NCBI GenBank assembly: GCA_964360335.1
Contig: CAYHVH010000001.1
Coordinates: forward strand, 23,426 to 87,425
Origin: an uncultured Candidatus Saccharibacteria bacterium
Lineage (GTDB): Bacteria; Patescibacteriota; Doudnabacteria; UBA920; 2-01-FULL-46-14
Direction: 5' to 3'
Length of the DNA stretch: 64,000 bases
In this document: positions 47-62,205 of the stretch, one piece after another
Position numbering within the stretch: the stretch's first letter is position 1
Layout: every line of letters starts with the position of its first letter
Made by a program: the position numbers and the translations under genes
Notes under the pieces: generated by a model
Told to the model about the DNA's origin: nothing
Seen by the model: the letters and a program-made list of their open reading frames with translations, nothing else
Databases searched by the model: none

Positions 47-132
47 TGTCATCCCGGCCAAGCCTGCCCCGTACTTGATACGGGGAGCCGGGATCCAGGA
101 AGTATGGATTCCGGATCAAGCCCGGAATGACA
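47..132. repeat. Family-B palindromic repeat, copy 1 (TGTCATCCCGGCC...GCCCGGAATGACA), overlapping the 3' end of the upstream ORF
   Basis: Terminal inverted repeat TGTCATCCCGG / CCGGAATGACA encloses a CCCCGTACTTGATACGGGG hairpin. Closely similar to copies at 48299-48324 and 49281-49325. Confidence 0.6.
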
Positions 133-481
133 ACTTGCGCGGTTTGGTTATATTTGGCTCCTTATCATATTTCGGTAAAACTATTTCCTTTATTTTTCCA
201 GACGGCCATTCGGCCACGGGAATACCTAAAGCATAGGCCAAAGCATTGGCTATGGCCACTCCGGTGCGCGTGGCAGAAAACGCCCCCGGGCCAGGATTAA
301 CGAGAATCTTAGTTAGCGCGGCGAGTTTAACTTTTTTCTTGCGCAAAAACTTCTCCAGTTCTGGAAGCAAGTTTTCCGAAAGACCTTCTACTGATTTTTC
401 CAGCCGAGCTAAAGTTTTCTGGTTTTCCAGAAGTGCAAGCGCCAAACGGCCCGATTGCGTTGTATCAATTAATAAATTCAT
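116..481 (-). CDS. Short TsaB/YeaZ-like protein (Kae1/TsaD-family inactive homolog), 121 aa
   Basis: N-terminus MNLLIDTTQSGRLALAL and a PGPGAFSATRTG motif resemble TsaB. The 3' end overlaps repeat copy B1, so the stop is likely supplied by the element. Confidence 0.4.
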   Translation of the reverse strand: MNLLIDTTQSGRLALALLENQKTLARLEKSVEGLSENLLPELEKFLRKKKVKLAALTKILVNPGPGAFSATRTGVAIANALAYALGIPVAEWPSGKIKEIVLPKYDKEPNITKPRKLSFRA

Positions 482-9379: not shown

Positions 9380-11050
9380 CTATTCCTCCGTCACCCGCCA
9401 GACTTCAGGGAGATCGGTAATTCCCTCCAAGGCCTTCAAGATCCCGTCCTGCTGCATAGTCAGCATCCCGGATGCGACCGCCGCTTTTTTGATTTCCAGA
9501 GTCGAGGCCTGTTGAAAAATCAGGCTTTCGATTTTTTCGTCCACGGCAAAGACCTCAAAGGCCCCGATGCGGCCCCGGTAGCCCAAATCATGGCACTCCG
9601 GACAGCCTCTGCTATGATAAAAAATTAGGTGCTCTGGTACGGTTACCGCCGCCTGGGGAGGAATTCGGGAAAGGGCAAGTTTAACCTGCTGCAGTTCCTC
9701 ACTACCGGGCCGGTAGGGCTCCTTGCAGTGCGGACAAATTTTCCGCAACAAGCGCTGGGCAATCAGGGCATTCAGAGCGGGAGCTAAGGTTACCGGCTTT
9801 ACTCCCAAATCCAAGAGCCGGGGAATGGCCCCAGCCGCGTCATTGGTATGCAGGGTGGAGAGCACGACATGGCCGGTCAGGGCGGCTTGGCTCGCGGTTT
9901 CGGCCGTTTCGTAATCGCGGATTTCTCCAACCATGACAATATCAGGATCCTGCCGGAGAATCGACCGCAGACCACTGGCAAAATCTACGCCGCTCGTGTG
10001 GTCAATCGGCGTCTGAACGATACCCTCCAACTGGTACTCCACCGGATCCTCCAGGGTAATAATTTTCACTCCGGGTTTGTTGAGGTGATTTAAAAAGGAA
10101 TATAAGGTCGTGGTTTTCCCCGAACCAGTCGGCCCGGTCGTCAAAGTCATGCCGTTGGGTTTTTTTAGTTCATGATTCACCACCTTCAGAGCCTGACCGT
10201 GCAACCCCAGTTTTTCGATGTCCAAGCCCACCTCCTGCATCCCCAAAATTCTCATCACTACAGACTCGCCGTGCGCCGAGGGCAACACCGAAACCCGAAT
10301 TTCCAAATTTCGCTCCGGCAACTTCACGGTAAATCTGCCGTCTTGGGCGACCGCCGTGACGTTAAGCTTCAGATTCGACAAAAGTTTGATCCGGGAAAGC
10401 AAAGAGTGTTGCAGACCGAGTGGAAAATCCAAAATTTCCGCCAATACCCCGTCCACCCGAAACCGGACCTTGAGTTGAGTTTTTTCCGGCTCGAGATGGA
10501 CATCCGAGGCCCGCATGATGATAGCCGCGCCAAGCATCAAGCCCACAAGCTCACTCGCAGAAATCGAGAGCAGGGATTCCCCCAAAGTCGGCAGGGCCTT
10601 GAATTTCTCCAGGACTTCCCGGCCGAGGGTTACCGCGACCTCGTGTTTGAGCGACAAAAAGGCGGGCAGAATTTTCTTGTACTGTTGCAGAGCGGCCGCG
10701 AGGGCCGTGCGCGCAACCAAATAAATCTGAACTTGGAATTTCCGCTTGGCCAATTGGGCGAGCAGAAGCTTGAGGCTCGGGTTTTGCGGTTCGGTAATTG
10801 CAACCTTCAGGAGCAAGCCGTCTTTGAAGAATGGCACGGCCGCGGCGGCAACGGCTTGTTCATACGGCACCAAATCCAAAGCCTCCTCGTCAATTGGTAG
10901 GCCCATGAGGTCAAAATATGGAAGAGAAAGAGCGGCGGCACGCCGTTGCGCTTCCTGCTCCTCGAACTTCCGATTGAGATCAGTGAAAACCCGCTGTACT
11001 CCCGCCCCGCCGTCCGGGGCCGGGACGTGTTTGCCTACTCCCGGAGCCAT
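9380..11050 (-). CDS. Type II secretion / type IV pilus assembly ATPase (GspE/PilB family)
   Basis: 556 aa. Walker A GPTGSGKTTT, GspE N-terminal domain, and a C-terminal CxxC...CxxC zinc motif (CPHC...CPEC). Confidence 0.85.
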   Translation of the reverse strand: MAPGVGKHVPAPDGGAGVQRVFTDLNRKFEEQEAQRRAAALSLPYFDLMGLPIDEEALDLVPYEQAVAAAAVPFFKDGLLLKVAITEPQNPSLKLLLAQLAKRKFQVQIYLVARTALAAALQQYKKILPAFLSLKHEVAVTLGREVLEKFKALPTLGESLLSISASELVGLMLGAAIIMRASDVHLEPEKTQLKVRFRVDGVLAEILDFPLGLQHSLLSRIKLLSNLKLNVTAVAQDGRFTVKLPERNLEIRVSVLPSAHGESVVMRILGMQEVGLDIEKLGLHGQALKVVNHELKKPNGMTLTTGPTGSGKTTTLYSFLNHLNKPGVKIITLEDPVEYQLEGIVQTPIDHTSGVDFASGLRSILRQDPDIVMVGEIRDYETAETASQAALTGHVVLSTLHTNDAAGAIPRLLDLGVKPVTLAPALNALIAQRLLRKICPHCKEPYRPGSEELQQVKLALSRIPPQAAVTVPEHLIFYHSRGCPECHDLGYRGRIGAFEVFAVDEKIESLIFQQASTLEIKKAAVASGMLTMQQDGILKALEGITDLPEVWRVTEE

Positions 11051-19222: not shown

Positions 19223-20251
19223 ATGATTAACAAAACCTCCAAACCAAAAAGCCGGGTGGTGACGGCCAAAGAGGAGGTCGCGGACCGCGAGCTGGATTTA
19301 ACGCTGCGGCCGAAAACGCTCGAAGAATACATCGGCCAGAAAAAAATCAAAGAACACCTGGCGATTTTTTTGGGGGCGGCGAAAAAACGCAAGGAGCCGA
19401 TGGAACACGTTCTGGTCTACGGCTCCCCGGGCTTGGGCAAAACCACGCTCGCCCACGTGCTGGCGAAAGAAATGGGAGTGGCCATCAAGGTCACTTCAGG
19501 GCCAGCCATCGAACGAGCCGGGGATTTGGCCAGCCTGCTAACCAATCTCCAGGATCATGACGTTCTGTTTATCGACGAAGTCCACCGCTTGCCCCGGGTG
19601 GTCGAAGAAATTCTCTATCCGGCCATGGAAGACTTTCGGTTTGACATTATCTTGGGCAAGGGGCCCGGGGCGCGCTCGGTCAGGCTAGAGCTGCCGCGCT
19701 TCACCATCATCGGGGCGACGACCCGCATCGGCCTGATTTCTGCCCCCCTGCGCGACCGGTTCGGCGTGACTTTGAAACTCGATTACTACGAACCGCAGGA
19801 AATCGAACAAATTATCGCCCGGTCGGCCAAAATTTTGGCCATTAAAATTGCGGAGGGCGCGATTCGGGAGATCGGCCACCGCGCCCGCTTTACGCCCCGC
19901 ATCGCCAACCGGCTCTTGCGTCGCGTCCGAGATTTTGCCCAAATGCGCGGCGACGGAACGATTACTGAAGATTTGGCCAACACTGCTCTGGAACTTTTAG
20001 AGGTGGACGCTTTGGGTTTGGATCGCAACGACCGACAATTTCTCCTGGCGCTGATTGAAAAGTTTCACGGCGGGCCGGTCGGCTTGGGCTCCCTGGCGGC
20101 CGCTACCAGTGAAGAAGAGGATACCATTGCCGATGTCTACGAGCCATATCTGCTAAGATTGGGGATGCTGTCCCGCACTGCCAAAGGGCGAATGGCCACC
20201 CCGAAAGCCTACAATCACCTCGGCCGGAAACCGGAGCGTTCCCTACTATGA
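19223..20251 (+). CDS. ruvB: Holliday junction branch migration ATPase RuvB
   Basis: 342 aa. AAA+ motifs: Walker [10 protein letters not shown] and Walker B FIDEVHRL. Confidence 0.95.
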
Positions 20252-37781: not shown

Positions 37782-38768
37782 CTAGCGGGTTACGCTAAGC
37801 TTTGCGGTTTCGCTAAAACCAGCGCCTTTGGTCTCAAAACCAAAAATTTTTATCTCGTATTCGCCCGGCTCTTTGGGCGCCGAGAACCGAAACTGAAAAG
37901 GCGCGCTCCGGTCCAAGAGGTCTAAGTTTGGCATCACGAGCTTGACGCTCACAAGTTCAATGCCCGCTACCGGCCGGACCTCCAGAGTTACTTCCTCGGT
38001 GGGGTAAAACGGCTTTTTGCTTAGGTCGGTAACCAGCAAGACACCGCCGGCCGGCCGGCTGCTGAGCCCCTTGATAAGTGAATCTTGGCTGATGATGAGG
38101 TCGGCCGGCAGCCGGTTTTCCGAAGACACAACCTGGAGGCCTTGCTTCAGAGTTCCGAGGTTCGTTTCCAACAAAAAGGACAGCGAATAGTGCAAGGCCG
38201 GCTCGCCCAAAGGAGTATAGAGGTAGGGCTCATTGGTTTTGGGATCACGGGGGAGGGCAACCAGCAATTCCTGATCTACGAGTGTGGTCAGGCTTTGGGG
38301 GTAGAATTTATTAGTTTCATAGTAACTCTCCAGGGCAGTTTGGAGATTTTGGACAGCAACGATTCTTTGCCGGTCGCGGATCCCTTCCGGTTGTTCCTGG
38401 GCCGGAGTTTGATTTTGGGTTGCGTTCGCAGGCGGCTTTAGAGTTTGGGTGGCCGCCGGCGGCAAGTCATTCTTTTTTTGGAAGAATTTTTGGTAGGTAA
38501 GGAGCCCGCCATAACCAAGGATAGGAAGAGCGATTAAAATTACCAAAACCGTAATTAAGGGTTTGCCATATTTGCCCAAAAAGCCGCCGGCTTTTGGCAG
38601 ATTCCCCGTGAGTGCTTCCTCTGGGGCGAGCATCTCGACTTCGAAAATTGCTTGCTCAATTTCCGTTTCCTGCCAGCCAGCCGCCCGCAAGGCCTGCCGG
38701 ATTTGCTCTTCCGGAAAACCCGCGGCCAAGTTTTGTTTGATGTATTTAAGGAGTATTTGCTCGGGCAT
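37782..38768 (-). CDS. Hypothetical single-pass membrane protein with a cytoplasmic N-terminal domain and an extracellular C-terminal domain
   Basis: 328 aa, TM at roughly residues 70-92, Q/P-rich linker, no recognisable catalytic motif. Confidence 0.45.
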   Translation of the reverse strand: MPEQILLKYIKQNLAAGFPEEQIRQALRAAGWQETEIEQAIFEVEMLAPEEALTGNLPKAGGFLGKYGKPLITVLVILIALPILGYGGLLTYQKFFQKKNDLPPAATQTLKPPANATQNQTPAQEQPEGIRDRQRIVAVQNLQTALESYYETNKFYPQSLTTLVDQELLVALPRDPKTNEPYLYTPLGEPALHYSLSFLLETNLGTLKQGLQVVSSENRLPADLIISQDSLIKGLSSRPAGGVLLVTDLSKKPFYPTEEVTLEVRPVAGIELVSVKLVMPNLDLLDRSAPFQFRFSAPKEPGEYEIKIFGFETKGAGFSETAKLSVTR

Positions 38769-38786: not shown

Positions 38787-38862
38787 TGGTGGGCCAGGAT
38801 GGATTCGAACCATCGACCCCGGCTTTATAAGAGCCGTGCTCTAACCGCTGAGCTACTGGCCC
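38787..38862 (-). tRNA. tRNA-Ile with anticodon UAU (CCA encoded)
   Basis: GGGCCAGTAGCTCAGCGGTTAGAGCACGGCTCTTATAAAGCCGGGGTCGATGGTTCGAATCCATCCTGGCCCACCA. Clean cloverleaf. Anticodon loop is CTTATAA. Overall similarity to tRNA-Ile. Confidence 0.75.
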
Positions 38863-38883: not shown

Positions 38884-41391
38884 TCAAACAATTGCGGCAG
38901 AGGCCACACTATCGCCTGGCTCCAGTTTGATGACCCTCACCCCTTGGGTTGCCCGGCCTAAGGTCGAGACTGGCCCTAGGGCGGTGCGCAAAGTCTGGCC
39001 GGTTTTGGAGATGACTACCAGATCGGCTTCTTTGGCGCGGCTGACAATATGCATTACCATGATTCGCCCGGTTTTTTTGGTAAGGTTCATGGTTTTGATC
39101 CCGGAACCGCCTCGGTGCTGGATTTTGTATTCCTGTAGCGGTGTTTTTTTACCTAAGCCCAGTTCCGAGATGACCAGCACCTGGAGATTTTTGGACTCCT
39201 GCCGCTTCTCAATCACATCCAGACTCATTACTTCATCGTTTTTCTTTAAGCGAATGCCCCGCACGCCGCTGGCCGCCCGGCCCATGGGTCGGACGTCAGT
39301 CTCTCTGAACCGGATGGCTTGCCCCCCGCCGGTAGTAATCATAATTTCGTCCGTTCCCGAGGTGAGCATGACCCATTTTAGTTCGTCGTCTTTCCGAAGT
39401 TTGATAGCAATTAGCCCAGAGCGACGGACCTTGACAAACTCTGCCACCGTGGTTTTCTTCACGGTGCCAAATCTGGTACCCATGAGGAGGTATTTGTATT
39501 TGGTTCGCTCGCCTTTACCGAAAGTCAGCACCGCGGTGGCGGCTTCCTGTGGACCTAACTCCAGAAAATTCACCAGGGCTTGCCCCTTGGCGATGCGCGA
39601 GGCCTCGGGGAGTTCGTAAACCTTGGTCTGAAACACCCGGCCCCGGTTGGTGAAAAACAGGATGTCGTCATGGGTCTCGGCAGAAAGCAATTTGTTAACC
39701 ACATCCTGTTCTTTGGTGGTAATGCCGATCACGCCTTTTCCGCCGCGCCCCTGCTTGCGGTAGGTGTCGGGCGGCAGACGTTTGACGTACCCGGACTTGG
39801 TCACGACGATAATCGCTTCCTCGTTGGCAATCAAATCTTCCACCTTGAATTCCCCGACCGCCTGTTTAATCATCTGGGTGCGGCGTAAATCTCCGTATTT
39901 TTCTTTGAGTTCCGCCAGTTCCCGTTTGATGACGGCGTCGATTTTTTTGGGCGAGCGCAAAAGTTCTTCTAGTTCTTTGACGAGCACGCGTTTTTCTTTG
40001 AGTTCCTCCTCGACTCTCCGGCGTTCCAGCCCGGCTAAAGCCTGAAGTTTCATTTCCAAAATGGCGGTGGCTTGTTTTTCCGACAGCTTGAACTTTTTTT
40101 GCAGCTCCCGGTGGGCCTGCTCTTTGGTATCGGCTTGTTTGATGGTTTTGATAACCGCATCGATGTGATCCAGGGCAATCTTTAGCCCTTCCAGGATGTG
40201 GGCCCGGTCCTCGGCTTTGGTGAGGTCAAATTGGGTGCGGCGGGTGACGACCTTGCGGCGGTGGGCGATATAAGCTTCCAGAATCATCTTCAGGTTTAAA
40301 ATCCGCGGCTCAATGCCGTCTACCAAGGCGAGCATGTTGAGGTGGAAGGTGTCCTGCAGCTGGGTATATTTGAAGAGCTGGTTTAAGACCTTATTCGACA
40401 GGGCGTCTTTTTTGAGTTCCACGACGATGCGTACCCCCTCTTTGTCGGATTCGTCCCGTAAGTTTTTAACCCCCTCAATTTTTTTATCCCGGATGAGTTC
40501 CGCAAACTTTTCCAAAAGTGAGGCCTTGTTGACTCGATAGGGGATTTCCGTGATTAAAATTTGATAAGCGCCGTCCCGACTCTCCACAATTTCGGTTTTG
40601 GCCCGCACCGTGACGCTGCCTTTGCCGGTGGCATAGGCGCTTTGGATGGCGTTCCAGTCGTAGATAATGCCGCCGGTCGGAAAGTCCGGGCCCAACACAA
40701 AATTCATCAGGTCCTCGCTGGTGAGCTTCGGGTCGTCAATCAGGGCGGCCGTGGCTTCCACAATTTCTTTGAGGTTGTGCGGCGGGATGTCGGTCGCCAT
40801 CCCCACCGCAATTCCCAAGGTGCCGTTCAGCAGGAGGTTGGGGAGTTTGGCTGGCAGTACTGTCGGTTCCTTTTTGGTGGCATCGTAGTTGTCCATCCAG
40901 TCAACCGTGTTTTTTTCAAGGTCGGCGAGGAGTTCCAAAGACAGAGGAGCCAGCCGGCATTCCGAATAGCGCATGGCCGCCGGTGCATCCCCGTCCAGAG
41001 AACCAAAGTTACCCTGCCCGTCCACTAGGGGATAGCGCATTGCAAAGTCCTGGGCCAGTCTGACGAGCGAATCGTAGACTGCCACGTCTCCGTGCGGGTG
41101 ATATTTTCCCAAAACTTCCCCGACCACGGTGGCTGATTTGCGGTAGCGACCGCCGGCGTTTAGGCCGAGTTCGCTCATGGCAAAGAGCACGCGCCGGTGC
41201 ACGGGTTTCAAGCCGTCGCGCACATCGGGTAGCGCGCGCGACACAATTACGCTCATCGCGTAGTCCAGGTAGGACTCCCTCATTTCTTCTTCAATTACCC
41301 GCGGTTTGACATAGCCAATTTCCCGACCCGTGGGGGGATTGTCGGCAGGCGGGGATTGACCGGTGGATTTTTTTAGCTTCGGTTTTTTCAT
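38884..41391 (-). CDS. gyrA: DNA gyrase subunit A
   Basis: 835 aa. Active-site region ([10 protein letters not shown]), QRDR-like segment, and C-terminal beta-pinwheel repeats. Confidence 0.95.
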
Positions 41392-42462: not shown

Positions 42463-43632
42463 ATGAGCGAGACTTTGCAATCCATGAACGATTTGCTGGC
42501 CGCCACCGCGGCTGGTAAGCTCCGGATTTTACAGGAAGGCGACGTGATCAAAGGCCGCATTTTGAGCGTGGGTAAAAACGAGGTTTATGTGGATGTCGAA
42601 GGAGTCGGCATCGGCGTGGTGCGGGGCCGGGAGCTGTATGACGATGAACAAATTCTCTCCTCGCTGCAAGCCGGTAGTGAGGTTTACGCTTCGGTCATTG
42701 ATATTGAAAACAAAGAAGGCAATATCGAACTGTCATTCCGCAAAGCCGGCCAGGAACGGGTCTGGCAGGCGCTTCGGGAGAAGCTTTTGAATAAAGAAGT
42801 GGTCACGACCAAGATTTTAGAGGCGAATAAGGGCGGCCTGATGGTAAAAATCAACAACGTCCTCGGTTTTTTGCCGGTTTCCCAGCTAGCACCTTCGCAC
42901 TATCCCCGGGTGGAGGATGGGGACAAAAATAAAATTTTAAGCGTTTTGCGCAGCTTCGTCGGGCAAGATTTTCCGGTCCGGATTATTACGGCCGAGCCGC
43001 AGGGGGAAAAGTTGATTGTCTCGGAACGGGCGGTTATTGAGGAAGAGTTGCTGAAAAAGATCGGCAAGCTCACCGTCGGTTCAGTGGTGGAGGGAGCGGT
43101 CACGGGAGTCGTCGATTTCGGCGCGTTTGTGAAGTTTGATGACGAGCTGGAAGGCCTGGCTCATATTTCCGAGCTTGCGTGGCAGCGGATTGAGGATCCC
43201 AAAGACATCGTTAAAGTCGGGGATAAAGTCAAAGCGCAAATCATCGCCATTGAAAATGACCGGATCAGTCTCTCCCTGAAGCGGCTCCTCAAGGATCCGT
43301 GGGAAGATGCCGTAAAAAAGTACCAGATTGGGCAGGTCATTAAAGGCAAGGTTTTGAAACTTGCCCCCTTTGGCGCTTTTGTGGAGCTCGATCCGGACAT
43401 TCACGGGCTCGCCCACTTGGGGGAGCTCTCCGAGGAAAAAATTGCTGACCCGAGCGCCGTCTTGAAGGAAGGAGAAGAGCGAGAGTTCAAAATCATCTCC
43501 ATCGAGCCGCAGGAGCACCGCTTAGGCCTCTCGCTCAAGGCTTTAAAAAGCGGGGGCAAAACCCCGGAGTCGCCGGAGCCGGCAGCAGCCGAGGCCAGTC
43601 CCGCGCCGTCGTCAGCCGAAACACCGGTTTAG
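42463..43632 (+). CDS. rpsA: 30S ribosomal protein S1 (four S1 domains)
   Basis: Repeated S1 OB-fold domains (GxV.G.V..I...G.FV). Confidence 0.85.
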   Translation: MSETLQSMNDLLAATAAGKLRILQEGDVIKGRILSVGKNEVYVDVEGVGIGVVRGRELYDDEQILSSLQAGSEVYASVIDIENKEGNIELSFRKAGQERVWQALREKLLNKEVVTTKILEANKGGLMVKINNVLGFLPVSQLAPSHYPRVEDGDKNKILSVLRSFVGQDFPVRIITAEPQGEKLIVSERAVIEEELLKKIGKLTVGSVVEGAVTGVVDFGAFVKFDDELEGLAHISELAWQRIEDPKDIVKVGDKVKAQIIAIENDRISLSLKRLLKDPWEDAVKKYQIGQVIKGKVLKLAPFGAFVELDPDIHGLAHLGELSEEKIADPSAVLKEGEEREFKIISIEPQEHRLGLSLKALKSGGKTPESPEPAAAEASPAPSSAETPV

Positions 43633-54992: not shown

Positions 54993-57900
54993 ATGTCATC
55001 TAAAAAAAGCCAAACCGCCAATTTACCCATCAGGAAGAGCGTTACTGCCAAGCGCAACCGCTTTACGGCTACGACGGAAGTGGTGGAACTGCCGAATTTG
55101 ATCGAGATTCAAACCCAGTCCTACCGCTGGTTTTTTGAAAAAGGTTTGAAAGAGCTTTTTGAAGAGGTCAGCCCGGTCAAAGATTTTACGGGCAAAAATT
55201 TAGAGCTGCATTTCGGACAATACTTTTTGGACAAACCGAAATTTACCGAACTTGTGGCCAAGGAGCGCAATACGACCTACGAGGCGCCGCTTTACGTTCA
55301 AGTGAAACTCTTGAACAAGGCCAAGAACAAAACCAAAACCCAGGATGTTTACCTGGGCGATTTTCCGTTAATGACCAACCGCGGCACGTTTGTGATTAAC
55401 GGGGTGGAACGGGTAGTGGTCTCGCAGCTCATTAAATCGCCGGGAGTATTTTTCAGCGCGGTTTATGGCCGCGGCCGCAACTACTATGGCGCCAAGGTCA
55501 TCCCCAATCGGGGAGCGTGGTTGGAACTTGACACTGATCTCAACGGCGTGATTGGCGTGAAAATTGACCGCAAGCGCCGAATTCCGATTACCGCGCTGCT
55601 GCGGGTTTTCGGCCTTTCGGCAGACGAAGACATTCTGGCGGCGTTTGCGGATGTTGATACCAACCCCGATCTTAAATACCTGCAAAATACTTTGGAGAAA
55701 GATCTCTCCAAAAACGCCGATGAAGGGTTCAAAGAGGTTTATAAAAGAATCCGGCCGGGGGATCTGGCCACCGTAGACAACGCGCGGTCCCTGATCGAAG
55801 CCATGTTTTTTAACTTTGACCGTTATGACCTCTCTTTGGTCGGCCGCTACAAGTTCAACCAGCGGCTCGGAGTCAAAGGACGCTCAGACCGGATTTTGAC
55901 CCGCGAAGATTTGGTGGCAGTGGTCCGGGAGATTGTCCGCTTGAACAACTCCCAGGAGCCGCCGGATGACATCGATCATTTAGCGAATCGCCGAGTGCGG
56001 GCGGTGGGGGAGCTCATTCAGACAAAGTTTCGGGTGGGTTTGGCACGGATGAGCCGAATCGGCAAAGACCGAATGAGTCTGGCGGATTTGGAAACGGTCA
56101 TGCCGGCCCAGCTCATCCACGTCCGGCCGATTGTGGCGGTGATGCAGGAGTTCTTTTCTTCTTCCCAGCTTTCGCAATTTATGGATCAGACTAATCCTTT
56201 GGCCGAGCTTGAGCACAAACGGCGGCTGTCCGCGATGGGCCCCGGCGGGCTGTCGCGGGAACGGGCCGGTTTTGAGGTGCGCGATGTCCACCGGTCGCAT
56301 TACGGACGGCTCTGCCCGATTACCACGCCGGAAGGCCCGAACATTGGGCTAGTGGCCCATTTGGCATCCTATGCACGGATTAACGAATTTGGCTTTCTTG
56401 AAACTCCTTACCGGAAGGTGATCAAAGAAGGAGAGAGGCGGCGGGTAACCAATGACATTGTTTATTTAGATGCTTACGAAGAGGGACAGTATATCATTGC
56501 CCAGGCCAACACCAGAACAGACGAACAGGGTTATTTTTTGGAAGAGCGAGTTTCCGTGAGAGTCCACGGCGAGCCTTCTCTGGCCCCGACCTCCGAGATT
56601 GACTATATGGAAGTTTCTCCCAAACAGATTGTCTCGATTACTACTTCCTTGATTCCTTTTTTGGAACACGATGACGCCAACCGGGCGCTAATGGGCAGTA
56701 ACATGCAGCGGCAAGCCGTCCCCTGTATCCGGCCCCAAGCCCCGCTGGTGGGGACGGGGGTGGAAGAAAAAGCCGCTTTTGATTCGGGCCAGATTATAGT
56801 TTGCGACGCATCGGGAACGGTGACTTCAGTAACCGGCGAGAAAATTGTGGTGACCGGCGAGGACGGGACCAAACGGGAATATCTTTTAAAGAAGTTTTTG
56901 CGTTCAAATACCAGTACTAGTATCAATCAAAAACCGATTGTCCGGCGGGGCGAGAAGGTCGTCCGGGGCCAGGCTTTGGCGGATGGGCCGGCGACCGCTT
57001 CGGGTGAACTGGCTTTGGGACAAAACCTTCTGGTGGCGTTTATGTCTTGGGGCGGCTATAACTACGAAGATGCGGTGATTATTTCCTCGCGCGTCGTCCA
57101 GGACGATCGGTTTAGCTCGATTCATATCGAGGATTTCAAGGTTGACGTCCGGGATACTAAATTGGGCCCGGAGATTGTGACCCGGGATATCCCGAATGTC
57201 GGAGAGGAAAAATTGAAAGATTTGGATGAAAACGGGGTTGTCCGCATCGGTGCCCAAGTCAAGGCCGGCGATATTTTGGTCGGCAAGATTACTCCCAAAG
57301 GGGAAACAGATCTCACGGCCGAGGAAAAACTTTTACGTGTGATCTTCGGCGAAAAAGCCCGCGACGTCAAGGACACCTCTTTGACTTTACCCCATGGGGA
57401 ATACGGCAAAGTCGTCAACATCCGGGAATTTTCCCGGGAGCGAGGGGACAAATTGCCCTCCGGCGTAATTCGCTCCATCCAAGTTTCGGTGGCCGTAGTG
57501 CGGAGAATTTCCATGGGCGACAAGATGGCGGGGCGGCACGGGAACAAGGGTGTGATTTCCACCATCGTGCCGGCAGAGGATATGCCGTTTATGGCTGACG
57601 GAATGTCCGTGGACATCATTCTCAATCCGCTGGGGGTGGCCTCGCGCATGAATCTGGGACAAATTTTAGAAACCCACCTGGGGTTAGCCGCCCATAAACT
57701 GGGATATCAAGTCGTCAGCCCCGCGCTCGACGGAGTGCCGGAGGCAGTCATCAAGCAGGAGCTTATAAGGGCGGGCTACACGCCAGACGGCAAAGTGATT
57801 TTGTATGATGGGAAAACGGGAATGCCCTTCGCCGAGAAAGTTACGGTGGGTTATATCTACATGATGAAATTGCACCACCTTGTGGACGATAAAATGCACG

Positions 57901-58292
57901 CCCGTTCGACCGGCCCATATTCGCTCATTACCCAGCAACCGCTGGGCGGGAAAGCGCAGTTTGGGGGTCAGCGATTTGGCGAGATGGAAGTCTGGGCCTT
58001 GGAGGGTTACGGGGCGGCGCATACCTTGCAGGAAATGTTGACAATCAAATCGGATGACGTGGTCGGCCGATCCAGGACTTACGAGTCTATTGTTAAAGGG
58101 GAACCAATTAAAACCCCGAACATTCCTGAATCTTTCCGGGTTTTGGTTAAAGAGCTGCAGTCTCTGTGTCTGGATGTCAATCTGGTGGGCGAAGAACAAA
58201 AGCCGGACACGGAAGGGGAAGTGCAAGAGCTGGTTGCTCCGGTTTCCGAGGAGCGAGAGAAAAAGCGGGAAAAAACCCCAGCCGAAGCCTAG
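54993..58292 (+). CDS. rpoB: DNA-directed RNA polymerase subunit beta
   Basis: 1099 aa; conserved beta-subunit blocks throughout. Confidence 0.97.
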
Positions 58293-58305
58293 GATCAACC
58301 AAAAG

Positions 58306-61300
58306 ATGTTTCAAAAAACTTCGGAATTCAAAGCCGTCCAAGTGAAACTCGCTTCCCCCGAGCAGATTTTGAATTGGTCTTATGGTGAGGTAACCAAGCC
58401 GGAAACGATTAATTATCGAACCCAGCGTCCGGAAAAGGACGGCTTGTTTGATGAGAAAATTTTCGGGCCGGTCAAGGACTGGGAGTGTTATTGCGGGAAA
58501 TATAAACGGATTCGTTACAAAGGTATCATTTGCGACAAATGCGGCGTGGAAGTAACCCGCGCCCAGGTGCGGCGGGAACGGATGGGGCACATCAAACTGG
58601 CCGTACCGGTGGCCCATATTTGGTTTTTGCGCGGTGTGCCTTCGCGCCTGGGCTTGATTTTGAACCTCTCCGTCCAAGATTTGGAAAAAGTTATTTATTT
58701 CGCCTCTTATATTATCACCGAGGTCAAGGAAGACGCGCGGGCGGAAACATTGAACCAGATTGAAAAAGAATTCAAACTCAAGAAAAAGGAAATCGAGGGG
58801 CGTTACGAGAAGCTTTTCTCGAAGGCCAAGGGGGCAAAGCCTCCGACTGGGGCCGACCAGGAAGTTTGGGGCGCCCAGGTCGAAACCGAAATTGTGAAGC
58901 TTCGGGAAAACCAGCAGCACGAAGTTGTGGCCTTGGAGAAAATTCGCGATTTGGCCCGCTCGGAACTTAAAAGTCTCAAAAAGCTGCAGGTGATTTCTGA
59001 ACTAGAATACCGGGATTTGTCTCTGAAATACGGACCGGTTTTCAAAGCCAGCATTGGCGCCGAGGCGATTTGGCAGACTGTCAAAGACCTCGATTTGGAA
59101 AAACTGGTTCAGGAATTGGAGCAGGAATTGGGCAGAGCAGAGGGGGCAATAAGGCGGAAGATTATCAAACGTTTGAAGCTTGGGAAATCCTTATTGAAGG
59201 GTGGCATGCGGCCGGAATGGACGCTGATCACCGTTTTGCCGGTGATTCCTCCTGATCTAAGACCCATGGTCCAGTTGGATGGCGGCCGGTTTGCCGCTTC
59301 AGATTTAAATGATCTCTACCGCCGGGTCATCAATCGGAACAATCGTCTGAAACGGCTTTTAGAGATCAACGCTCCCGAAGTTATTACCCGCAATGAAAAA
59401 CGAATGTTGCAGGAAGCGGTGGATGCGCTAATTGACAATTCCATCCGGCACGGCAAGGAGGTTACTGCCTCCACCGGCCAGCGCCGAAAACTCCGCTCGC
59501 TGGCGGACATGCTCAAAGGCAAGCAGGGACGGTTCCGCCAGAATTTGCTTGGGAAAAGGGTGGATTATTCCGGGCGCTCGGTAATCGTGGTCGGGCCGGA
59601 GTTGAAACTCCATCAGTGCGGCTTGCCGAAACGCATGGCTTTGGAATTATTCAAACCGTTCGTGATTTCCAAACTGATTGCCCGCGAGTATGCCCACAAT
59701 GTCCGGTCCGCCAACCGACTGATTGAGCAGCAGCGTTCGGAAGTCTATGATATTTTGGAGGAGGTCACCAAAGACCATTATGTCCTTTTAAATCGCGCCC
59801 CGACCTTGCACCGCCTCGGCTTTCAAGCATTTCAGCCGGTGTTGATTGAGGGCAAAGCCATCCAGATTCATCCCATGGTCTGCCAGGCTTTCAATGCCGA
59901 TTTTGACGGAGACCAGATGGCGGTTCACGTGCCTTTAACCTCCCAAGCCCAGCAGGAAGCTAGGGAGCTCATGGTTTCTTCTCATAACTTACTGAAGCCG
60001 GCTTCGGGGGAGCCGATTATGACTCCCGATAAGGACGTGGTACTCGGTTGCTATTACATTACCTATTTTCGGATCGGGGCCTTGGGAGAAAACAAGATTT
60101 TTAGCGACGAACAGGAAGCCATTCTGGCTTATCAGTCCGGGGCCGTGTCGATTAATGCCAAGATCAAGGCCCGGATTCAGGGGAAGCTTTTAGAAACCTG
60201 TGTCGGGCGGATTTTGTTCAACCAGCTTCTTCCTCAAGAGCTCCAGTTTGTTAACGAGGTCACGGACAAGAAGCGGTTACGCCAGGTGGTGCGGGAGTGC
60301 TACCGCAATTTTGGTACGGAGCGCACAGCGGTTTTGATTGATGAGATTAAAAAGATTGGTTTTTCCCACCTTACCCAGTCAGGGTTGTCGTGGGGGATGG
60401 ATGATTTGCGGGTGCCGGTGATCAAACAGAAATTACTCCAAAGCGCCGACGAGGCCGTACAGCGGACCTACGAGCAGTATCAGGAGGGGCTACTGACCAA
60501 CGCGGAACGCTATAACCGGGTGGTCGAGATTTGGGCCGAAGTTCGAGACAAGATCACCGACGAAGTTACGAAGTCCCTCGACCAATACGGACCAGTTTAT
60601 TCGATGGTCGTTTCCGGCGCGCGCGGTTCCCTGTCGCAGGTTTCGCAGATGACCGGGATGAAAGGTTTGGTCGTCAATCCGGCCGGCGACGTCATTGAGC
60701 TGCCGGTCCGGGACAGCTTCAAAGAGGGTTTGAGCATTTTGGAATACTTTATTTCTACACACGGTTCGCGCAAAGGGATGAGCGATACGGCCTTGCGGAC
60801 TGCAGACGCCGGTTATCTCACTCGCCGGTTGGTGGATGTGGCGCAGGACGTGGTGGTCAACGAAGAAGATTGCGGCACGAAGTCCAGCATTGTAATTAAT
60901 CGCCAAGCGACGGCACAGATGGGAAAGACCGTGACCGAGCGGCTTTTCGGGCGAGTGTTGGCTCGGGATGTAGTTCACCCCCAGAGCCGCAAGACCTTGG
61001 CGAAACGCGGCCAGATTATCGATGATGTTTTGTCCCGGGATTTGGACAAGAGCGGGGCGGAAGAAATCTTGGTTCGTTCCGTACTGCATTGCACCCTGAA
61101 GCGGGGGGTTTGCATCAACTGTTATGGTTTTGATCTGGGTTACAACCGACCCGTGGAGCTGGGTGCGGCAGTAGGGATTATTGCGGCTCAGGCCATTGGG
61201 GAGCCGGGAACGCAATTGACTATGAGAACCTTCCATACCGGAGGAGTCGCTGGGTTGGACATCACTCAGGGTTTACCGCGGGTTGAGGAGCTATTCGAGG

Positions 61301-62205
61301 CGCGGGAACCCAAAGGGCAGGCGGTCGTTTCGGAAATCGACGGGCTCGTCTACACGTCGCGGCCGAATTCCAAGGAGCTCGTCATTCGGATCGAGGCCGA
61401 GGATTTGCAAAAAGACGAATATCTCTTGCCGCCGGGGAAACTGCCCCAGATTACCGATGGCGAGAAAGTCAAAAAGGGAGAGCCGATTTTGCTCGACCAA
61501 GAGGGCCAGACTTTAAAGGCCAAAAATTCCGGAGTTGCAAAGCTGGAAACCGGCCCAGACGGCCAAAAAAAGCTGGTGGTGATCCGGGAGTCGGAAAATT
61601 TCCGCGAATACGTGGTGTCCTCAGCCGTTACGCTACTTCTGAAGGATGGGGATTTGGTTGCCAAGGGGCAGCAGCTAACCGAGGGTAATCTCAATTTGCA
61701 TCAGATTATGCAGTTGCGCGGGATTGAAGCCTGTCAGAATTATGTTATCCGCGAAGTGCAGAATATTTATTCGTCGCAAGGACAGAATATTGCCGATAAA
61801 CACATCGAGATTATCGTTCGCCAGATATTTTCGAAGCTGCGGATTGTTGACCCCGGCGATTCCGAGTATTTGGTCGGCGATATTGATGACCGGCTGCGCT
61901 TGGATGAGATGAATAAAGAAATCGGCAAGCGGGGCGGCCGGAAAGCCCAGACCGAACAGTTGCTTTTGGGAATTACCAAAGCTTCACTGAATACCGAGTC
62001 TTTCCTGGCGGCCGCTTCTTTTCAGGAAACAACCCGGGTCCTGATTGAAGCCGCGGTCACCGCAAAAACCGATTATCTGCGGGGCTTAAAGGAAAACGTA
62101 ATTATTGGGAAACTGATTCCCGCCGGTACCGGTTTTAGCAAAGAGCGCTTGGTCAACCTGACGGAGCAGGTTACCCCCGCGAGTGAGCTGATGGCCGAAG
62201 AATAA
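58306..62205 (+). CDS. rpoC: DNA-directed RNA polymerase subunit beta'
   Basis: Starts MFQKTSEFKAVQVKLASPEQI. Zn finger CGKYKRIRYKGIICDKCGVEV and the NADFDGD catalytic motif. The track ORF's 5' extension into rpoB is rejected. Confidence 0.97.
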   Translation: MFQKTSEFKAVQVKLASPEQILNWSYGEVTKPETINYRTQRPEKDGLFDEKIFGPVKDWECYCGKYKRIRYKGIICDKCGVEVTRAQVRRERMGHIKLAVPVAHIWFLRGVPSRLGLILNLSVQDLEKVIYFASYIITEVKEDARAETLNQIEKEFKLKKKEIEGRYEKLFSKAKGAKPPTGADQEVWGAQVETEIVKLRENQQHEVVALEKIRDLARSELKSLKKLQVISELEYRDLSLKYGPVFKASIGAEAIWQTVKDLDLEKLVQELEQELGRAEGAIRRKIIKRLKLGKSLLKGGMRPEWTLITVLPVIPPDLRPMVQLDGGRFAASDLNDLYRRVINRNNRLKRLLEINAPEVITRNEKRMLQEAVDALIDNSIRHGKEVTASTGQRRKLRSLADMLKGKQGRFRQNLLGKRVDYSGRSVIVVGPELKLHQCGLPKRMALELFKPFVISKLIAREYAHNVRSANRLIEQQRSEVYDILEEVTKDHYVLLNRAPTLHRLGFQAFQPVLIEGKAIQIHPMVCQAFNADFDGDQMAVHVPLTSQAQQEARELMVSSHNLLKPASGEPIMTPDKDVVLGCYYITYFRIGALGENKIFSDEQEAILAYQSGAVSINAKIKARIQGKLLETCVGRILFNQLLPQELQFVNEVTDKKRLRQVVRECYRNFGTERTAVLIDEIKKIGFSHLTQSGLSWGMDDLRVPVIKQKLLQSADEAVQRTYEQYQEGLLTNAERYNRVVEIWAEVRDKITDEVTKSLDQYGPVYSMVVSGARGSLSQVSQMTGMKGLVVNPAGDVIELPVRDSFKEGLSILEYFISTHGSRKGMSDTALRTADAGYLTRRLVDVAQDVVVNEEDCGTKSSIVINRQATAQMGKTVTERLFGRVLARDVVHPQSRKTLAKRGQIIDDVLSRDLDKSGAEEILVRSVLHCTLKRGVCINCYGFDLGYNRPVELGAAVGIIAAQAIGEPGTQLTMRTFHTGGVAGLDITQGLPRVEELFEAREPKGQAVVSEIDGLVYTSRPNSKELVIRIEAEDLQKDEYLLPPGKLPQITDGEKVKKGEPILLDQEGQTLKAKNSGVAKLETGPDGQKKLVVIRESENFREYVVSSAVTLLLKDGDLVAKGQQLTEGNLNLHQIMQLRGIEACQNYVIREVQNIYSSQGQNIADKHIEIIVRQIFSKLRIVDPGDSEYLVGDIDDRLRLDEMNKEIGKRGGRKAQTEQLLLGITKASLNTESFLAAASFQETTRVLIEAAVTAKTDYLRGLKENVIIGKLIPAGTGFSKERLVNLTEQVTPASELMAEE

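Follow-up and report, generated by a model that had tools for sequence, protein, structure and literature searches.

Among the classic weak points of the genetic code is the need to keep AUA (isoleucine) apart from AUG (methionine), for which lysidine is the textbook bacterial answer. In most bacteria AUA is read by a dedicated minor tRNA, tRNA-Ile2(CAU), carrying the lysidine made by TilS, an enzyme regarded as nearly universal and essential and as a drug target. Exceptions are on record. Nine species in three clades have been described without tilS, along with 371 distinct TAT tRNA sequences in metagenomes (PMC3575796), and by 2014 tRNA-Ile(TAT) genes had been catalogued in 19 bacterial species (PMC4013482). 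In 2026 tRNA-Ile(UAU) was still termed a 'rare case' (bioRxiv 10.64898/2026.02.03.703510). The gene described here lies in a 64-kb window, which is the whole stretch of DNA analysed, from a deep uncultured lineage that joins these exceptions. Like canonical tRNA-Ile2(CAU), it encodes a dedicated minor tRNA for AUA, with C4-G69, U12-A23 and A73 in common. Unlike it, the gene has T at position 34 and therefore offers no cytidine for lysidine; TilS is not needed, and lysidine cannot serve IleRS as an identity element.

The closest described system is that of Mycoplasma mobile, which was shown to combine an unmodified U34 in its tRNA-Ile2(UAU) with an IleRS carrying Arg865 and a ribosome that rejects AUG (Taniguchi et al. 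2013, PMC3575796). As in M. mobile, the genome is reduced, keeps AUA as isoleucine and encodes a TAT anticodon in a tRNA of Ile type, likely without tRNA-Ile2(CAU) and TilS. Unlike M. mobile, the host belongs to the Patescibacteria and not to the Tenericutes, the origin is independent, and the UAU trait seems common to whole classes rather than to a single species. The kind of system is thus already known, its assignment to Doudnabacteria and the CPR is new, and there is a hint, also new, that UAU decoding is the rule in several CPR classes.

Other systems share parts of this arrangement. Bifidobacterium and Neorickettsia have tRNA-Ile(TAT) without tilS, as proposed here, although theirs is accompanied by a eukaryote-type IleRS2 (PMC3575796). 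TAT tRNA-Ile genes are also found in Lactobacillus casei, Lactobacillus plantarum, Cyanothece PCC 7424 and Ferrimonas balearica; these four keep TilS and lysidine (PMC3575796), whereas the tRNA counts of the complete Doudnabacteria genome argue against a third CAU tRNA. In Bacillus subtilis, the G34U suppressor of a tilS deletion in tRNA-Ile1 demonstrates that an isoleucine tRNA with U34 can sustain AUA decoding without TilS (Fabret 2011; Kohrer 2014, PMC3919564). That suppressor arose in the laboratory by mutation of the major GAU tRNA, whereas the Doudnabacteria gene is natural and separately conserved. The eukaryotic cytoplasmic tRNA-Ile(UAU) carries pseudouridine at positions 34 and 36, and an intron is needed for this pseudouridylation. 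It has the reading of AUA by UAU in common with the Doudnabacteria gene, which is intronless and has bacterial features.

Taken as a whole, the best explanation of the locus, with a probability of about 0.75, is a functional tRNA-Ile(UAU) that is most probably the sole decoder of AUA and replaces the tRNA-Ile2(CAU)/TilS system.

The tRNA gene and its genomic setting

The features on which the analysis draws are as follows.

38787 to 38862, minus strand: tRNA-Ile(UAU) gene (ARAGORN, Rfam RF00005, fold, orthologues with covariation)
38825 to 38831, minus strand: anticodon loop CUUAUAA, tRNA positions 32-38 (direct reading; C32-U33-U34-A35-U36-A37 invariant in 10 CPR orthologues)
38884 to 41391, minus strand: gyrA, 835 aa (NCBIfam PRK05560, 1133.9 bits)
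37782 to 38768, minus strand: gene for a conserved hypothetical protein, 328 aa (translation; synteny in loci L001, L002, L005 and L027)
116 to 481, minus strand: TsaB-like gene, PF00814, 121 aa (Pfam annotation of an identical gene on Hainich contig L176)

The tRNA gene had originally been predicted from the letters of the sequence as a clean cloverleaf with a UAU anticodon, its strand unstated. ARAGORN returns a tRNA-Ile with anticodon tat at exactly 38787-38862 on the minus strand, and Rfam model RF00005 matches positions 38790-38862 of the same strand with 74.4 bits (E=2e-14; gathering score 29). Written 5'-3', the RNA is GGGCCAGUAGCUCAGCGGUUAGAGCACGGCUCUUAUAAAGCCGGGGUCGAUGGUUCGAAUCCAUCCUGGCCCACCA, 76 nt long, with A73 as discriminator and CCA encoded in the gene. 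A 7-bp acceptor stem is followed by U8 and A9, a 4-bp D stem, a 5-bp anticodon stem closing the 7-nt loop CUUAUAA, a variable loop of 5 nt, and a 5-bp T stem with the loop UUCGAAU. Taken straight from the sequence, the lengths of all arms and loops are canonical, in keeping with the predicted cloverleaf. The anticodon UAU occupies window positions 38827-38829, where the plus strand reads ATA.

The minimum free energy of the RNA is -33.5 kcal/mol (z = -3.6), and none of 200 shuffled sequences was as stable. The fold of minimum energy recovers the acceptor, D and anticodon arms, while its T-arm pairing departs from the canonical T stem; the canonical T stem is accepted because it is backed by covariation in relatives. 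The Rfam E-value, together with conservation and covariation in relatives, excludes a chance origin of the gene.

The tRNA gene begins 21 nt past the stop codon of gyrA, on the same strand, and the 328-aa open reading frame begins 18 nt downstream of the tRNA. As no sigma-70-like promoter was found in the spacer between gyrA and the tRNA, co-transcription is likely, and the tRNA probably shares a transcript with gyrA. Elsewhere in the window ARAGORN reports just two tRNA genes, for Cys(GCA) and Leu(UAA), at around 44.7-45.0 kb.

A functional tie between the tRNA and the 328-aa protein was considered and rejected: the protein has a membrane-anchored look and no nucleic-acid or modification domain. 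It has no NCBIfam match, and its one match, to UBA, is below threshold.

The window covers a chromosomal replication-origin region, with dnaA, dnaN, recF, yidC and jag, and further holds polA, uvrB, ruvA/B/C, tyrS, rpsA and murE. Its host is a member of Candidatus Doudnabacteria, within the CPR/Patescibacteria. Among species-representative genomes, the closest relatives of its GyrA are found in Candidatus Doudnabacteria metagenome-assembled genomes (MAGs), at 78-84% identity, and the same GyrA is encoded exactly on Hainich groundwater contigs from the 0.1-um filter fraction.

Probable AUA decoders in complete relatives

Per-amino-acid tRNA counts for 95 complete Patescibacteria genomes are available from a 2026 study of tRNA introns (PMC13011429, Supplementary Table 2), which mentions neither UAU nor lysidine. 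The counts come from tRNAscan-SE and ARAGORN and are given without anticodons. ARAGORN labels each CAU tRNA 'Met', while the tRNAscan-SE 'Ile' count omits Ile2(CAU); the latter follows from the Saccharimonadia, where tRNAscan-SE gives one Ile and one Met tRNA versus three Met tRNAs by ARAGORN. Re-read in this way, the genomes divide as follows.

One non-CAU Ile tRNA (50 genomes): two or fewer CAU tRNAs in 0, three or more in 50
Two or more non-CAU Ile tRNAs (45 genomes): two or fewer CAU tRNAs in 40, three or more in 5

Initiator and elongator methionine need two CAU tRNAs, and there is therefore no room for Ile2(CAU) in the 40 genomes of the second row. These include the sole complete Doudnabacteria genome, GCA_016699995.1, with three Ile tRNAs by tRNAscan-SE (two by ARAGORN) and two CAU tRNAs. 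By class, the two patterns are distributed as listed here.

At least two Ile and at most two CAU tRNAs, all tabulated genomes of the class: Dojkabacteria 7/7, Microgenomatia 12/12, Doudnabacteria 1/1
The same pattern, one genome each: WWE3, UBA1384
The same pattern, part of the class: Paceibacteria 14/20, ABY1 2/4, Gracilibacteria 2/5
Classical pattern: Saccharimonadia 34/36, JAEDAM01 7/7, Kazan-3B-28

Across the 95 genomes, the count of non-CAU Ile tRNAs complements that of CAU tRNAs almost perfectly, and the division follows class, a pattern on which PMC13011429 is silent. We infer that the second Ile tRNA in these genomes has the anticodon UAU, which is backed by UAU genes in Doudnabacteria, Parcubacteria and Nealsonbacteria loci. 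From the counts in complete relatives, the host of the window would lack tRNA-Ile2(CAU), at odds of roughly two to one. Without that tRNA there is no use for TilS, and it is fairly likely that the genome lacks TilS and that tRNA-Ile(UAU) alone decodes AUA in it.

The main alternative is that tilS and tRNA-Ile2(CAU) are retained, with the UAU tRNA as an additional and possibly minor reader of AUA. Bacteria with both systems are known (PMC3575796), and for this reason the loss of tilS, one of two consequences that the original prediction had drawn from the anticodon, does not follow from a UAU tRNA alone. Among annotated bacterial genomes, moreover, about 98% are reported to have tilS (PMC12514573). 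Within the phylum itself the counts of both systems coexist, in that five of the 45 genomes with at least two Ile tRNAs have three CAU tRNAs. The other 40 of these 45, however, have no more than two, and in the complete Doudnabacteria genome both CAU tRNAs are needed for methionine. In addition, an invariant anticodon and purifying selection with compensatory changes across distant CPR lineages, described below, fit an essential gene better than a spare. Two decoders side by side are therefore an unlikely arrangement in this host, if one that deserves some weight.

Direct searches for the genes concerned covered several sets of sequence. In the 64-kb window, Pfam and NCBIfam searches of about 40 open reading frames and an ARAGORN scan found no tilS, ileS or CAU tRNA, and none was found in about 7.5 kb added to its left. 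The PP-loop motif SGGxDS was absent from the window and from 680 kb of fetched DNA. In 1.35 Mb, made up of 616 kb of gyrA loci and 725 kb of metagenome contigs with tRNA-Ile(tat), phmmer searches with E. coli queries found neither TilS nor IleRS and returned ValRS and LeuRS only, the sole class-Ia synthetases there; nor did the fetched loci contain a tRNA-Ile2(CAU). With the essential IleRS absent from this sample too, the lack of TilS in it is uninformative. A TilS profile search of a collection of 5.8 billion proteins used the N-domains of the E. coli, Geobacillus and Aquifex enzymes as queries; its best 120 matches were all relatives of the queries, those with a named source coming from Enterobacteria, Vibrio or Aquificae.

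Conservation of the gene

Six related genomes (L003, L005, L006, L007, L016 and L027) have a tRNA-Ile(tat) gene immediately behind gyrA, and the same gyrA-tRNA synteny is seen on L001 and L002. Outside the Doudnabacteria, tRNA-Ile(tat) is also present in the Parcubacteria MAG L018 and the Nealsonbacteria MAG L024, where it adjoins tRNA-Val(GAC).

Ten CPR sequences of the tRNA, nine of them distinct, were aligned. No variation is seen in the anticodon loop CTTATA, the D stem or the T loop, while compensatory substitutions are found in the acceptor, anticodon and T stems, with both sides changed in 13 of 21 pairs. Paired cells make up 99.5% in this alignment, and its covariation score of 0.708 compares with 0.169 for shuffles and no more than 0.13 when the partners are slid. 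All 129 homologues collected have T at position 34. Because the anticodon loop is invariant and the stems carry compensatory changes, the tRNA gene is taken to be functional. On this evidence it is no pseudogene and no recent mutant of a CAT gene, and selection constrains the anticodon itself strictly.

A gene that does not work (a pseudogene, a tRNA of a phage or mobile element, or a tRNA of other identity with a miscalled anticodon) is highly improbable in light of these data. The idea draws on the occurrence of tRNA-Ile(tat) in phage-like metagenome tRNA arrays (L106, L110, L111 and L166). The gene in the window is instead a single tRNA flanked by gyrA and a conserved gene of the chromosome, within the origin region that holds dnaA, dnaN and recF; its synteny is kept in six related genomes, its four stems are intact and carry compensatory substitutions, and a 7-nt loop with U33 and A37 fixes the position of the anticodon. 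Another identity and a pseudogene, the two outcomes that would have overturned the original prediction, were thus not found. A phage or mobile-element tRNA was ruled out separately, as the gene stands alone, with no array, prophage or island, and is syntenic in relatives.

The phage-like arrays themselves hold 19-32 tRNA genes each and resemble the tRNA clusters of large phages. Two of the four also carry tRNA-Ile(gat) and CAU tRNAs.

The position of the gene varies. In the Doudnabacteria MAG MFEF01000028 (L005, 5691-5767), the orthologous tRNA-Ile(tat) occupies the same spacer, between gyrA and a 327-aa open reading frame, on the opposite strand, which is a small local inversion. Pairs of tRNA-Ile(tat) and tRNA-Val(gac) recur on CPR-like contigs, namely L018 (1685-1842), L024 (145-303), L076, L081, L124, L127 and L156, and suggest that the tRNA-Val(gac) neighbourhood is an older, different genomic home of the gene. 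More distant Doudnabacteria loci (L008-L015, L019, L023, L047 and L048) have no tRNA after gyrA. The position is therefore not uniform within the class, and perhaps the UAU system itself is not uniform either.

Isoleucine identity and the meaning of AUA

The identity elements of E. coli IleRS were reportedly listed by Nureki et al. in 1994. The tRNA has these elements: the CPR alignment shows A73, U12-A23 and A37 without exception, and C4-G69 in eight of the nine distinct sequences. Compared with 254 other tRNAs from the fetched loci, the window tRNA is most similar to tRNA-Ile(GAU), with Val, Met and Ala behind. A BLAST comparison of the tRNA with E. coli genomes and phages was dropped as a test of identity, its matches being spread over many isotypes.

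The codon read by this anticodon is used about 5-6 times in every 1000. In the set of open reading frames from the window, AUA accounts for 111 of 18,784 codons (5.9 per 1000), or 9.4% of isoleucine codons; a subset of 20 well-annotated genes gives 5.0 per 1000. Several genes, namely gyrA (38884-41391), rpsA (42463-43632), pilB (9380-11050), ruvB (19223-20251) and yebC (36422-37138), contain no AUA at all, which is consistent with avoidance of the codon.

The meaning of AUA was assessed by a codon-site comparison of ten window genes with their homologues in the fetched genomes, in which ATA codons of the homologues were ignored. Residues aligned with each class of codon in the window were distributed as follows.

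ATA sites: Ile 51%, Val 18%, Met 1.5% (2/135 cells)
ATT and ATC sites: Ile 54-58%, Val about 20%, Met about 4%
ATG sites: Ile 6.4%, Val 7.1%, Met 57%

Since AUA sites align with isoleucine and valine and not with methionine, AUA is read as isoleucine. Individual positions agree. For example, the conserved isoleucine of the DnaA motif KQIVLSSDR is encoded by AUA, and this residue is isoleucine in the DnaA structures of B. subtilis and Aquifex. In Pol I, the AUA codons fall where the Bacillus fragment has isoleucine and valine.

AUA means methionine in mitochondria, and changes of the code are already familiar from CPR lineages, with UGA reassigned in Gracilibacteria/Absconditabacteria. Such general precedents are all that speaks for a reassignment here, in which tRNA(UAU) would be charged with methionine and AUA would mean Met as in many mitochondria; this has a negligible chance of being correct and was rejected, given a profile at AUA sites that is indistinguishable from that of ATT and ATC and far from that of ATG, AUA codons at conserved isoleucine positions of DnaA and Pol I, and a tRNA body nearest to tRNA-Ile(GAU) rather than to tRNA-Met.

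ARAGORN, Rfam, conservation, the invariant anticodon, the Ile-like body and the alignment of AUA sites together confirm the central claim of the original prediction, that a tRNA-Ile with a UAU anticodon is encoded in this genome. That the gene is functional and decodes AUA as isoleucine is very probable.

Proposed mechanism

The tRNA would be made as part of a gyrA co-transcript and released from it by RNase P and 3'-processing enzymes. Charged with isoleucine, it would read AUA through a plain Watson-Crick pair between U34 and A. As most probably the only AUA decoder, it would substitute for tRNA-Ile2(CAU) and TilS in the manner of Mycoplasma mobile.

Two steps of this scheme would call for adaptation elsewhere in the cell. 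The first is charging. For an IleRS of the E. coli type, a UAU tRNA is a substrate about 100-fold poorer than the lysidine form (PMC3575796), and the host IleRS must therefore tolerate U34. By analogy, it may carry Arg or Lys instead of the Trp905 of E. coli, or it may be a type-2 enzyme. The former corresponds to M. mobile, whose Arg865 stands where E. coli has Trp905, and the latter is the charging solution of Bifidobacterium and Neorickettsia (PMC3575796).

The second is discrimination against AUG. Left unmodified, a UAU anticodon reads AUG on the ribosomes of E. coli but not on those of M. mobile (PMC3575796); therefore either a property of the decoding centre, with competition from tRNA-Met, or a modification of U34 is needed. 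By analogy again, misreading of AUG by U-G wobble could be curbed in the host by the ribosome, by tRNA-Met competition or by U34 modification.

A37 is the expected site of t6A, which would be used by IleRS. The TsaB-like gene at the left end of the window is part of the t6A37 pathway, whose substrates are ANN-reading tRNAs including tRNA-Ile, and by inference it would serve tRNA-Ile(UAU) as well.

Distribution and significance

A scan of metagenomes with a 28-base pattern specific for this type of UAU tRNA-Ile found it on at least 120 contigs, several of them from the Hainich 0.1-um fraction and several of them phage-like arrays. The gene had been described as known from a few reduced genomes such as some mycoplasmas. 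The mycoplasma part of this statement holds, whereas 'few' understates a tRNA that is found on at least 120 metagenome contigs and is seemingly the rule in several Patescibacteria classes. In the literature collection searched, no paper was found to link CPR/Patescibacteria with AUA decoding, lysidine or TilS.

The chances are about even that UAU decoding is the standard AUA system in a large part of the Patescibacteria, with tRNA-Ile2(CAU) and TilS lost there. On this phylum-wide reading, the classes concerned would be Doudnabacteria, Microgenomatia, Dojkabacteria, WWE3, UBA1384, most Paceibacteria, and part of ABY1 and Gracilibacteria. Saccharimonadia and Absconditabacteria would then retain tRNA-Ile2(CAU)/TilS.

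Considered by itself, this one gene is a solid but unsurprising case of a described phenomenon; replacement across the phylum, if confirmed, would be weightier. The gene and the re-read tRNA counts suggest that a sizeable share of bacterial diversity lives without lysidine. If so, organisms with pared-down ribosomes and few modification enzymes would need their own way of keeping U34 from reading AUG, and either an adaptation of IleRS and ribosome unlike that of M. mobile or an undescribed modification of U34 could serve. How a plain U34 is kept from AUG could then be tested in another lineage, independent of the first and with a minimal ribosome. There are also practical consequences. Annotation pipelines expect an Ile2(CAU) tRNA, and marker-gene sets that use TilS would be affected. 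The bac120 marker set of genome taxonomy is probably one of these.

Further observations on the window and related loci

Between 24228 and 30104, the minus strand carries recF, dnaN and dnaA, and the plus strand yidC and jag/KhpB. An intergenic candidate for oriC lies at 28234-28930, and the cumulative GC skew has its minimum at about 24-30 kb of the window. Farther along, at 54993-62205 on the plus strand, two long overlapping open reading frames of 1099 and 1383 aa are unannotated; the 1383-aa product has no exact copy among public assemblies.

In eight MAGs (L003, L004, L007, L010, L016, L017, L021 and L049), GyrA is 59-82% identical to that of the window and synteny is shared. These MAGs are labelled 'Candidatus Saccharibacteria', 'Methylomirabilota', 'Verrucomicrobiia' or 'Gammaproteobacteria', and such odd labels on MAGs with a Doudnabacteria-type GyrA are probably due to taxonomic mislabelling or bin contamination in public records. 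In two Doudnabacteria loci, L013 (5609-9033) and L019 (4554-8150), the GyrA match takes up about 3.4-3.6 kb rather than 2.5 kb, which suggests an insertion, for example an intein.
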